From assembly GCF_055900595.2 (NCBI RefSeq), contig NZ_CM148325.1: a stretch of 64,000 nucleotides of DNA. One strand, written 5' to 3'. The position numbers and the translations under genes were made by a program. Below, piece by piece: positions 24,204-27,368 of this stretch; the stretch's first letter is position 1; every line of letters starts with the position of its first letter. The notes below the pieces were generated by a model. It was not told where the DNA came from and ran no database searches. It saw nothing but the letters and a program-made list of their open reading frames with translations.

Positions 24204-24831
24204 CTCTGTACCTCATTATATCCCGGGGGACTCCCCCCGGGACAGATATCTAAATCCTGACCTGTCAGAACTCAAAATTCACACCAGCATTCCACGATGC
24301 GGATGACCCACCTGCAGCAACTGCAACTTTTCCTGCCACATTCTCTGTGAAACGGTAGCCCACGCCCACCGCAATGGCCTGCTCATCACGGTAACCACCA
24401 ACGGCTGCTGTCGCGTTAAATTTTCCAACACTGTATGGCTGGAAAAGACCGGCCAGTGCCGCGCTCTGGGCTGCACTCTCCCTTAACTCCTTCCGGTTCT
24501 CTTTAATCTGCTCCTGCATATTATTCATTCTCTCTGTCGCCATCTTCTGCCAGGCTTCCGTCAAATCCAGACGATGACTGTTATTCCTTATCGCTGCTGT
24601 ATTTGAGGCTATTGCTGCATCCGTCTGCGCCCTGTTCTTCACAAGCACATCGCTGAGATGTTCTGCCTGGCTTTTCGCTTCTTTACGGGCATCCCGTACA
24701 CTTTTATCTGTATAAGCCCGGGAAACCTGAACTGTTTCATCCGCTTTTTCTTTTATTTCATCCTGAAGAGCAAGAGAAGATGCATCCGTATACGCCACCG
24801 CTGCCGATGTGCCTGCAATAATATCCCTGCT

Positions 24832-25062
24832 GAGTTCATCACGTACTGCTGTGACCTGACTGTCAGTATGAGCACGGGCATCTCTGTATACACCACCTAT
24901 CTCACCACGCAGACTGTCTCCCTCTGCCTTCAGTTCATCACGTACTGCTGTAACCTGACTGTCAGTATGAGCACGGGCATCTCTGTATACACCGCCTATC
25001 TCACCACGCAGACTGTCTCCCTCTGCCTTCAGTTCATCACGTACTGCTGTAACCTGACTGTC
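24832..25062. repeat. Tandem 99-bp (33-codon) repeats inside the adhesin stalk, about 3 copies, the last one cut by IS629
   Basis: Repeating unit agttcatcacgtactgctgt[a/g]acctgactgtcagtatgagcacgggcatctctgtatacacc...; encodes [33 protein letters not shown]. Confidence 0.8.
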
Positions 25063-25116
25063 TGAACCGCCCCGGAAATCCTGGAGACTAAACTCCCTGA
25101 GAAAGAGGTAAACAGG

Positions 25117-25443
25117 ATGACTAAAAATACTCGTTTTTCCCCCGAAGTCCGTCAGCGGGCGATTCGTATGGTTCTGGAAAGTCAGGATGAATATGACTCA
25201 CAGTGGGCGGCAATTTGTTCCATTGCTCCAAAGATTGGCTGTACGCCGGAGACTCTGCGTGTCTGGGTTCGCCAGCATGAGCGGGATACCGGGGGCGGTG
25301 ATGGTGGGCTCACCAGCGCTGAACGTCAGCGTCTGAAAGAGCTGGAACGTGAAAATCGTGAACTGCGCCGCAGTAACGATATCCTTCGCCAGGCTTCCGC
25401 TTATTTTGCGAAGGCGGAGTTCGACCGCCTCTGGAAAAAATGA
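25117..25443 (+). CDS. IS629 OrfA
   Basis: 108 aa, near-identical to copy 1 OrfA. Confidence 0.9.
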
Positions 25444-26330
25444 TGCCACTGCTGGATAAGCTGCGTGAGCAGTACGGGGTCGGACCGGTATGCAGCGAAC
25501 TGCATATTGCCCCGTCAACGTATTACCATTGTCAGCAACAGCGACATCATCCGGATAAACGCAGTGCCCGTGCGCAGCACGACGACTGGCTGAAGAGAGA
25601 GATACAGCGCGTATACGATGAAAATCATCAGGTGTACGGTGTGCGTAAAGTCTGGCGTCAGTTGTTACGGGAAGGAATCAGGGTGGCCAGATGTACAGTG
25701 GCACGTCTCATGGCGGTTATGGGACTTGCCGGTGTTCTCCGGGGTAAAAAGGTCCGTACGACCATCAGCCGGAAAGCCGTTGCCGCAGGCGACCGCGTAA
25801 ACCGTCAGTTCGTGGCAGAACGACCTGACCAGCTGTGGGTGGCTGATTTTACTTACGTCAGCACATGGCAGGGCTTCGTCTATGTGGCGTTTATCATTGA
25901 TGTGTTTGCCGGATACATCGTGGGGTGGCGGGTCTCATCGTCTATGGAAACGACATTCGTGCTGGATGCGCTGGAGCAGGCGTTGTGGGCCCGTCGTCCG
26001 TCTGGCACCATCCATCACAGCGATAAAGGCTCTCAGTATGTGTCACTGGCCTATACGGAGCGACTAAAAGAAGCCGGATTACTGGCATCAACAGGGAGTA
26101 CAGGCGACTCGTATGACAACGCGATGGCTGAGAGCATCAATGGTCTTTACAAAGCGGAGGTAATACACCGTAAGAGCTGGAAAAACCGTGCAGAAGTGGA
26201 ACTGGCCACACTAACGTGGGTGGACTGGTATAACAATCGACGATTGCTGGGAAGGCTGGGCCATACTCCTCCGGCAGAAGCAGAAAAAGCTTATTATGCT
26301 TCCATCGGAAACGATGATCTGGCAGCCTGA
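25440..26330 (+). CDS. IS629 OrfB (intact, 296 aa)
   Basis: [38 protein letters not shown]...[25 protein letters not shown]... (DDE integrase core). Confidence 0.9.
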
Positions 26331-27368
26331 GTTCACAGATAAAACACTCTCCAGGAAACCCGGGGCGGTTCAGTCAGTATGAGCACGGGCATCTCTGTAT
26401 ACACCACCTATCTCACCGCGCAGGGCATCCCCCGACACCCGTACAGCATCTGCAATGGCGTTGTCCATCTGTCCTTTTGTGGCCGCATCACTATCCTTAA
26501 CACCATCTGAAACATTTATAATCCGGCGGGTTTCCGGTGCACCATCAACTGAAAATCCATATCCTGAAGGACCGGCCCCTACAGAAAGTACATTGCTTTC
26601 TCCATTCACCTGAGAGCCATACCCCAGAGCGACACTGTTGTCTGCATTAAAAACAGCTGTCTTATGTCCCACTGCCATGGATTTACCCGCATCCCAAATT
26701 ATTGCACCGGAACCAACAGCAAAGTTTTTTCCAGTAACATTAGTATCACCGTTAGCATTTCCATTTCTGTCAATCACACTTGCACTTTCAAGTGACTGAG
26801 TGCCATTATCAAGCCAGATAGTACCCGTCAATGGCTCAGAAAGTGTTTTATGAGCCAAAGCCTGAGATGAGAGCAGCAGGGCCACACTCACTGCCAGCGC
26901 GCTTTTCTTTAAAAAAGCATCACGTCTTTTAAGCATTCTGTTATTCTCCTGTATTATTACTTCACCAGCCAGAACGGTAGTGCGGAGCAAAAATACAGTG
27001 ATAAGAATCCTCTCTTATTAACTTAATAATGCCAGGAATATTATTGTGTATAATATGCGACCTCAATTTAAGCAGCAGAAAACGACTGGCATTAAAATCA
27101 TTAAATTATAAACATATACAACTTTGTAAAGGTGGTTATAATAAACCTGATTACTTTAACGTCTGTATACCTGCACTGCTGATATCACAAAACAATAAAA
27201 ATCCTGGTTAATATCTCTGATGATTGAATGAGAAATTCACGATGTCTGGTGAGAATTCTGTTCAAAACGAGGAATGCAGACGTACATGTGGCAGGCATGG
27301 ACTTCTACCAATTTAACTTTTTTCCTTCCTTGTATTTACACATTGCACATTTTGCGCTACAAAAATTT

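Follow-up and report, generated by a model that had tools for sequence, protein, structure and literature searches.

The stretch of Escherichia coli DNA analysed here (the window) comprises 64,000 nucleotides of contig NZ_CM148325.1 from NCBI RefSeq assembly GCF_055900595.2. On its minus strand it carries the two parts of a gene for a predicted trimeric autotransporter adhesin (TAA), which are separated by a copy of the insertion sequence (IS) IS629 that lies within the tandem repeats encoding the adhesin stalk. A gene for a small helix-turn-helix (HTH) protein follows the adhesin gene, with a lysozyme inhibitor gene beyond it on the opposite strand, and the coordinates of all these features are given in Table 1. 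A preliminary description of the window had proposed that the adhesin gene was related to YadA and the Eib proteins and had been split by IS629, and we examined this proposal by in silico excision, similarity searches and comparison with other E. coli genomes.

Table 1. Features at and around the disrupted adhesin gene (window positions; aa, amino acids).
Feature	Position	Strand	Description and basis
Lysozyme inhibitor gene, MliC family, c-type	23025..23363	+	112 aa; NCBIfam NF010363, E 2.4e-46, 156.5 bits against a cut-off of 127
HTH protein gene	23748..24203	-	151 aa with a C-terminal HTH of sigma-70 region-4 type, 61 bp downstream of the adhesin gene; Pfam Sigma70_r4_2 (PF08281), E 4e-7, residues 87-130
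GC-rich stem-loop TCCCGGGGG-GAGT-CCCCCGGGA	24221..24242	-	In the gap separating the adhesin and HTH genes; not followed by a T-run; read from the sequence
Adhesin gene, 3' part	24265..25062	-	Codons 188/189-452 and stop; remaining repeat stalk, distal stalk, anchor (394-452); Pfam, PDB 2LME, EibA/EibD identity
Tandem stalk repeats, 99 bp (33 aa)	24833..25062	-	Tandem Repeats Finder: period 99, 2.3 copies, 98% match, score 446
Target-site duplication GTC, left copy	25060..25062	.	Read at the IS629 edge
IS629 (IS3 family)	25063..26372	+	1310 bp, orientation opposite to the adhesin gene; IS identity 1309/1310, NCBIfam
IS629 orfA	25117-25443	+	108 aa, open
IS629 orfB	25440-26330	+	296 aa, open; overlaps orfA at 25440-25443
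Target-site duplication GTC, right copy	26373..26375	.	Equals codon GAC, D188
Adhesin gene, 5' part	26373..26936	-	Codons 1-188; signal peptide, head, neck, first 24 stalk residues; translation, Pfam, BLASTP

In silico removal of IS629 together with one copy of GTC joined positions 26936-26376 to 25062-24265 and gave an uninterrupted open reading frame (ORF) of 1359 nt on the minus strand, encoding 452 aa. Over all 1359 nt this rejoined ORF showed 100% DNA identity to intact genes annotated as 'YadA-like family protein' (WP_000919997.1), an identity that held in all 40 complete E. coli genomes among the matches listed, which were mostly from poultry and human isolates. The identical intact gene is present in the avian pathogenic E. 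coli (APEC) strains IMT5155 and O2-211, in O78 strains and in many chicken isolates, and the 452-aa protein exactly matched a RefSeq/UniRef entry found on at least 1000 contigs. Because the rejoined frame is 100% identical to intact annotated genes, chance can be excluded and both halves belong to a single gene, as had been proposed. The preliminary description had also given a length of ~470 aa and an end at 26990, values obtained when the longest ORF is read from a TTG further upstream; the adhesin itself stands, with its start at the ATG at 26936 as in RefSeq, where a Shine-Dalgarno sequence (AGGAG) lies 9 nt upstream and the signal peptide begins.

The insertion point lies directly after codon D188, whose GAC corresponds to the duplicated GTC. 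The codon that now follows is a TGA supplied by the IS629 terminus, such that the disrupted ORF ends in ...RAHTD* and its product is a 188-aa polypeptide with the signal peptide, head, neck and 24 stalk residues and no anchor, while the downstream fragment is left with no promoter, start codon or signal peptide. A promoter and terminator scan of positions 23600-27500 returned nothing above shuffled expectation. Across IS629 the repeat array continues for 51 bp at 26373-26423, and in the rejoined protein the repeat motif, of 25 residues, starts at residues 174, 207 and 240. The insertion had originally been assigned to the third repeat copy, which is correct when counted along the plus strand, while in protein order the repeat that was hit is the first.

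All features expected of IS629 were found at this element, namely the length of 1310 bp, inverted repeats, orfA plus orfB and a 3-bp target duplication, as the preliminary description had reported for the GTC copies on either side. Its ends are imperfect terminal inverted repeats, with the start reading TGAACCGCCCCGG and the end being the inverted complement of the same sequence, and the insertion junctions read CTGTAACCTGACTGTCTGAACCGCCCCGG and CCGGGGCGGTTCAGTCAGTATGAGCACG. The NCBIfam model transpos_IS3 matched its ORFs with an E value of 2.9e-94, which places it in the IS3 family, and alignment with the copy in E. coli O157 strain 644-PT8 revealed one mismatch in 1310 positions. The Prokaryotic Genome Annotation Pipeline labels that O157 copy as 'IS3-like element IS1203 family transposase, programmed frameshift', and we take this to be the element that the O157 literature calls IS629.

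A second IS629-like copy is present in the window at 13242-14551, and it is 94.7% identical to the copy in the adhesin gene, from which it differs at 69 positions. This second copy has a stop within orfB, lacks a target duplication, is common to related genomes and is identical in strain GPEC389, so it must be old. It abuts a phosphoethanolamine transferase gene (ORF 11796-13223, minus strand), annotated in GPEC389 as lacking its N-terminus. Given the divergence of the second copy, its interrupted orfB, its missing duplication and its presence in relatives, the intact-looking copy at 25063-26372 is the younger of the two.

We next considered the architecture of the rejoined protein, for which a signal peptide, head, repeat stalk and membrane anchor had been described, and all of these were recovered by inspection, Pfam and BLASTP, the head through marginal matches. 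At the C-terminus Pfam PF03895 (YadA_anchor) aligned with residues 394-452 and was covered in full (model positions 1-60 of 60), with an E value of 2.9e-16, and the same end matched PDB 2LME, the structure of the YadA anchor, with an E value of 1.7e-17; the in-frame join and the YadA-type anchor homology, on which the proposal depended, were thus both found when tested. By inspection, the signal peptide spans approximately residues 1-28, MLKRRDAFLKKSALAVSVALLLSSQALA|HK (...SQALA|HK), in which the n-region is basic, the core is hydrophobic and the cleavage motif is A-L-A. It is followed by a β-strand head at ~60-135, where YadA_head matches were marginal (E 0.08-0.1), and by a neck that matched Pfam YadA_stalk at 138-164 (E 0.0013) and whose motif RRIINVSDGVKDSDAATKGQMD aligns with the EibD neck. 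Using an 11-sequence alignment, AlphaFold2 produced a monomer of low confidence (predicted local distance difference test score (pLDDT) 47.8, predicted template modelling score (pTM) 0.22), in which strands at 64-119 were followed by a near-continuous helix at 151-393 and strands at 404-436. The anchor, signal peptide and head-neck-stalk build are those of a TAA (type Vc), with surface display and trimerisation predicted. The curated NCBIfam YadA model aligned with residues 72-451 at 69.6 bits against a cut-off of 750, so the protein is not YadA itself.

Natural alleles of the gene differ by whole repeat units (419/421, 452/454 and 426/432 aa), and others, of 555/557 aa, have an alternative head that is longer. 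The signal-peptide part of the gene (its first 78-84 nt, window 26859-26936) matches at 95-97% in ~200 other E. coli genomes, in genes whose annotation there reads 'hypothetical protein' or 'Tat pathway signal sequence protein'. This suggests that the 5' end of the adhesin gene may be shared or mosaic with other genes.

Searching with the rebuilt protein for similarity to Eib and YadA, as the preliminary description had recommended, returned EibA, EibD and 2LME. The closest characterised relatives, identified using tblastn against phage records, are the Eib proteins of the ECOR-9 prophages, with EibA 57% identical over residues 335-452 (118 aa) and EibD 40% identical over residues 238-452, and the adhesin of phage GER2 is 62.5% identical over 340-427. 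The pairwise alignment with EibD is strongest near the anchor and gapped in the mid-stalk, the region in which the saddle minidomain of Eib lies. In the head and neck, identity to EibD was 26% (BLASTP, E 4e-5), and the EibD fragment of the head-and-stalk structure PDB 2XQH gave no match even at E ≤ 10, with 2XZR giving an E value of 0.16. The Eib-like label of the preliminary description consequently holds for the C-terminal part of the protein and fails for the head. We file the protein as a putative TAA related to Eib through its anchor and proximal stalk, a relationship that does not allow immunoglobulin (Ig) binding to be inferred.

The window is colinear with strain GPEC389, and the sole difference at the adhesin locus is IS629. 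To the left of IS629 the two sequences are identical at 24,350 of 24,352 positions (2 mismatches), and to the right they share 99.3% identity over 16.8 kb. Identity to GPEC389 reaches 99.99% in the island that holds the adhesin gene (711-25062), compared with 97.8% over most of cadCBA and dtpC (43921-51811), and this drop beyond the island indicates that the island is shared with GPEC389 while the flanking core comes from a different lineage. The adhesin gene's 3' half was present at ≥95% identity in 183 (~3%) of 5,426 complete E. coli genomes, and none of the 5,426 contained the IS629-adhesin junction. By these comparisons the insertion event is recent and strain-specific. An exact look-up of the 188-aa product had raised other isolates as candidates for sharing the insertion, which we rejected, as their contigs ending at codon 188 carry the intact-gene sequence GACAG. 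Since they carry GACAG and not IS sequence, the several public draft short-read contigs that end at D188 are repeat-induced assembly breaks, and such breaks mimic a truncation caused by IS629.

The same adhesin gene is also disrupted in two further complete genomes. In E. coli strain 135 (NZ_CP080260.1), which carries the island twice, one of the copies has the IS629 variant of the window inserted in the head-coding region of a long-head adhesin allele (locus positions 4428-5736), where excision of the IS gives an adhesin of 487 aa and the target duplication reads GTC followed by AG, as in the window. In E. coli strain 23CRST012 (NZ_AP045771.1) an IS21 (istA/istB) at locus positions 3788-5857 splits the gene after nt 288. 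Counting the window, the adhesin gene has thus been disrupted independently at least three times, twice by IS629 and once by IS21. This repeated insertion would fit recurrent selection to switch the adhesin off, and it would equally fit neutral decay.

Taken together, we consider it very probable that a copy of IS629 moved into the stalk repeats of an accessory TAA gene in an island adjacent to cadCBA, duplicated its 3-bp target GTC at D188 and left a null allele. The split itself is shown by the sequence, in which the upstream frame runs into the IS629 TGA and yields an anchorless 188-aa head fragment. In established type Vc biology, the passage of a TAA passenger through the outer membrane depends on the trimeric C-terminal anchor of the same protein. 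As the fragment has no anchor of its own, the passenger would by this biology be neither exported nor trimerised at the surface, making the allele null; the head fragment would stay in the periplasm and no adhesin would appear at the surface. Transcription of the HTH gene 61 bp downstream would probably also be reduced by IS629 polarity.

Nothing in the sequence contradicts a knockout by IS629, but some points do weigh against this interpretation. The AlphaFold monomer, with its low confidence, supports only the order of the secondary-structure elements, both the loss of surface display and the polarity on the HTH gene are effects that we infer, and an assembly error may formally have placed IS629 at this position, although the clean 3-bp duplication speaks to the contrary. 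Such an artefact, with a multi-copy IS misplaced into a repeat-rich gene that is intact in the organism, is extremely improbable. Misassembly is a classic consequence of tandem repeats and of multi-copy IS elements, and short-read contigs of other isolates break at exactly the same point of the gene, but those contigs carry the intact GACAG and no IS sequence. Furthermore, an exact 3-bp duplication flanks IS629 here, as it does two other IS629 copies examined, both junctions are clean to the base, and the sole other IS629-like copy in the window differs at so many positions that the two are not confusable. More can be said for a knockout that is a reversible OFF state, in which recombination between the repeats flanking IS629 restores a shorter in-frame adhesin, since IS629 sits inside the tandem repeat and the allele could therefore be revertible. 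The 51-bp upstream segment differs from repeat 2 by 2 mismatches, with exact stretches of 11 and 33 bp, and from repeat 3 by 1 mismatch, with an exact stretch of 45 bp. Simulated recombinants, from which IS629 is lost together with either one repeat unit or two, keep the frame and encode 419 and 386 aa. The longer recombinant is identical to a natural allele (P0017) found on 412 contigs, and variation by whole repeat units already exists among the natural alleles. Yet reversion is a possibility of the sequence only, with no revertant observed, and its rate would be low because the homologous segments are short, at 45-51 bp, and lie >1.4 kb apart. Moreover, nothing suggests selection maintaining such a switch, and in the two other IS-disrupted alleles, those of strains 135 and 23CRST012, the insertion lies in the non-repetitive head region. 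We regard a reversible OFF state as distinctly unlikely, and there is a similarly slim chance that IS insertion and RecA-type repeat recombination would together act as a crude on/off switch for this surface adhesin.

A further alternative concerns what the insertion removes, namely that the intact protein is a genuine Ig-binding member of the Eib family and that its disruption abolishes an Ig Fc-binding and serum-resistance function. In some database records the identical protein bears the name 'immunoglobulin-binding protein', a label based on similarity. With EibA and the phage GER2 adhesin the anchor and membrane-proximal stalk share 57-62% identity, in addition to the EibD match over 238-452, and the gene order of adhesin, stem-loop and an ORF of ~150 aa resembles that of eib loci. 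Much of the Eib similarity, however, comes from the anchor and adjacent stalk, and we do not class the protein as an Ig-binding Eib because the alignment with EibD has gaps in the middle of the stalk, EibD and EibA both have a much longer head and the 2XQH fragment was unmatched. In addition, the AlphaFold secondary structure is an almost continuous helix over 151-393, the locus is a chromosomal island and not a prophage tail-fibre region, and the current RefSeq name is the generic 'YadA-like family protein'. Ig binding by the intact protein is therefore unlikely, and the loss of an Eib-related adhesin through IS629 remains our preferred account.

The small HTH gene that the preliminary description had placed downstream of the adhesin gene was confirmed, and adhesin and HTH genes were adjacent in every related locus examined. 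The HTH gene is probably co-transcribed with the adhesin gene, and would for this reason probably be affected by IS629 polarity. Comparison of the HTH protein with ORF-156, a 156-aa protein encoded downstream of eib genes, gave weak similarity (BLASTP E 1e-4, 20% identity; hhalign probability 36%), and a search of 1.84 billion representative proteins returned fragments of the HTH protein itself and four weak matches (E 3e-4 to 8e-4) confined to its HTH segment at residues 66-129. Eib loci carry an annotated stem-loop at the same position as the one found here, with an unrelated sequence. The MliC/PliC-like gene was likewise correctly recognised, its score exceeding the model cut-off, but it does not form part of the same unit, as it runs on the plus strand, convergent with the adhesin/HTH pair and outside their transcription unit.

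The region as a whole is an island adjoining cadCBA, with phosphotransferase system (PTS), nanE-like and transketolase genes and CP4-type remnants. Phage structural genes were absent from the neighbours of the adhesin locus, and no tRNA gene was present in the window, where pheU had been sought as the attachment site of the island. On account of the nearby transketolase genes we considered whether the island could be the 'tkt1 genomic island' of APEC and rejected this, as the published island lies between metE and ysgA and has a single 2-kb tkt1 gene. A gene on the left side of the island, at window 1118-4942 on the minus strand, encodes a 1274-aa S6-family peptidase autotransporter, similar to the serine protease autotransporters of Enterobacteriaceae (SPATE-like). 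A 768-bp IS1 occupies window 43153-43920, at about codon 234 of cadC, with a 9-bp target duplication CTCCACCTT, and is absent from GPEC389. The regulator of the lysine decarboxylase operon is therefore also knocked out in this strain, and this IS1 is the second recent IS insertion in the window.

In our assessment the finding is an ordinary one, a routine strain-specific IS629 knockout of an annotated, uncharacterised Eib-related adhesin gene, and the insertion teaches nothing new about IS629 or autotransporters. If the null reading holds, this isolate displays no copy of the adhesin encoded by its closest relatives, and the relevance of this is limited to strain-level interpretation of adhesion and virulence gene content. 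A literature search found no paper on this 452-aa adhesin gene, and the intact adhesin, which ~3% of complete E. coli genomes carry (many being poultry isolates) and which is distinct from eYadA (see below), might merit a functional test.

In E. coli O157 and Shigella, insertions of IS629/IS1203 are well known to create strain-specific pseudogenes. The present case involves the same element (1309/1310) and the same 3-bp target duplication, whereas its insertion site occurs in no complete genome (5,426 E. coli checked) and its host island is of a type associated with poultry and extraintestinal pathogenic E. coli (ExPEC), being closest to that of GPEC389. With YadA of Yersinia the adhesin shares the 'lollipop' form of a single-headed TAA of similar size and the anchor match to 2LME (1.7e-17), but its score falls far short of the cut-off for YadA and its matches to the head repeats are marginal (E ~0.08). 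Another YadA-family adhesin of avian pathogenic E. coli is eYadA (WP_000859812.1) of APEC strain TW-XM, deletion of which altered motility, biofilm formation, adhesion and virulence (Vet Res 2026, PMC12955052). We rejected an identity between the two, as eYadA has 338 aa, is encoded at the cueR-ybbJ locus and shows 23% identity to our adhesin over the C-terminus (E 0.008).

The resemblance to the prophage-borne Eib proteins (EibA, C, D and E) extends to a type Vc build with a signal peptide, β-roll-type head, neck, coiled-coil stalk and four-strand anchor, to the sequence of the anchor and last stalk segment (EibA, 57% over 118 aa; EibD, 40% over 225 aa) and to the stem-loop and co-oriented ORF of ~150 aa that lie 3' of the gene. 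In contrast, the head is shorter than that of EibD or EibA and 26% identical to the former, the stalk carries three 33-aa tandem repeats where the Eib proteins have none, and the gene resides in a chromosomal island adjacent to cadC, whereas the eib genes lie beside the tail-fibre genes of lambdoid prophages.

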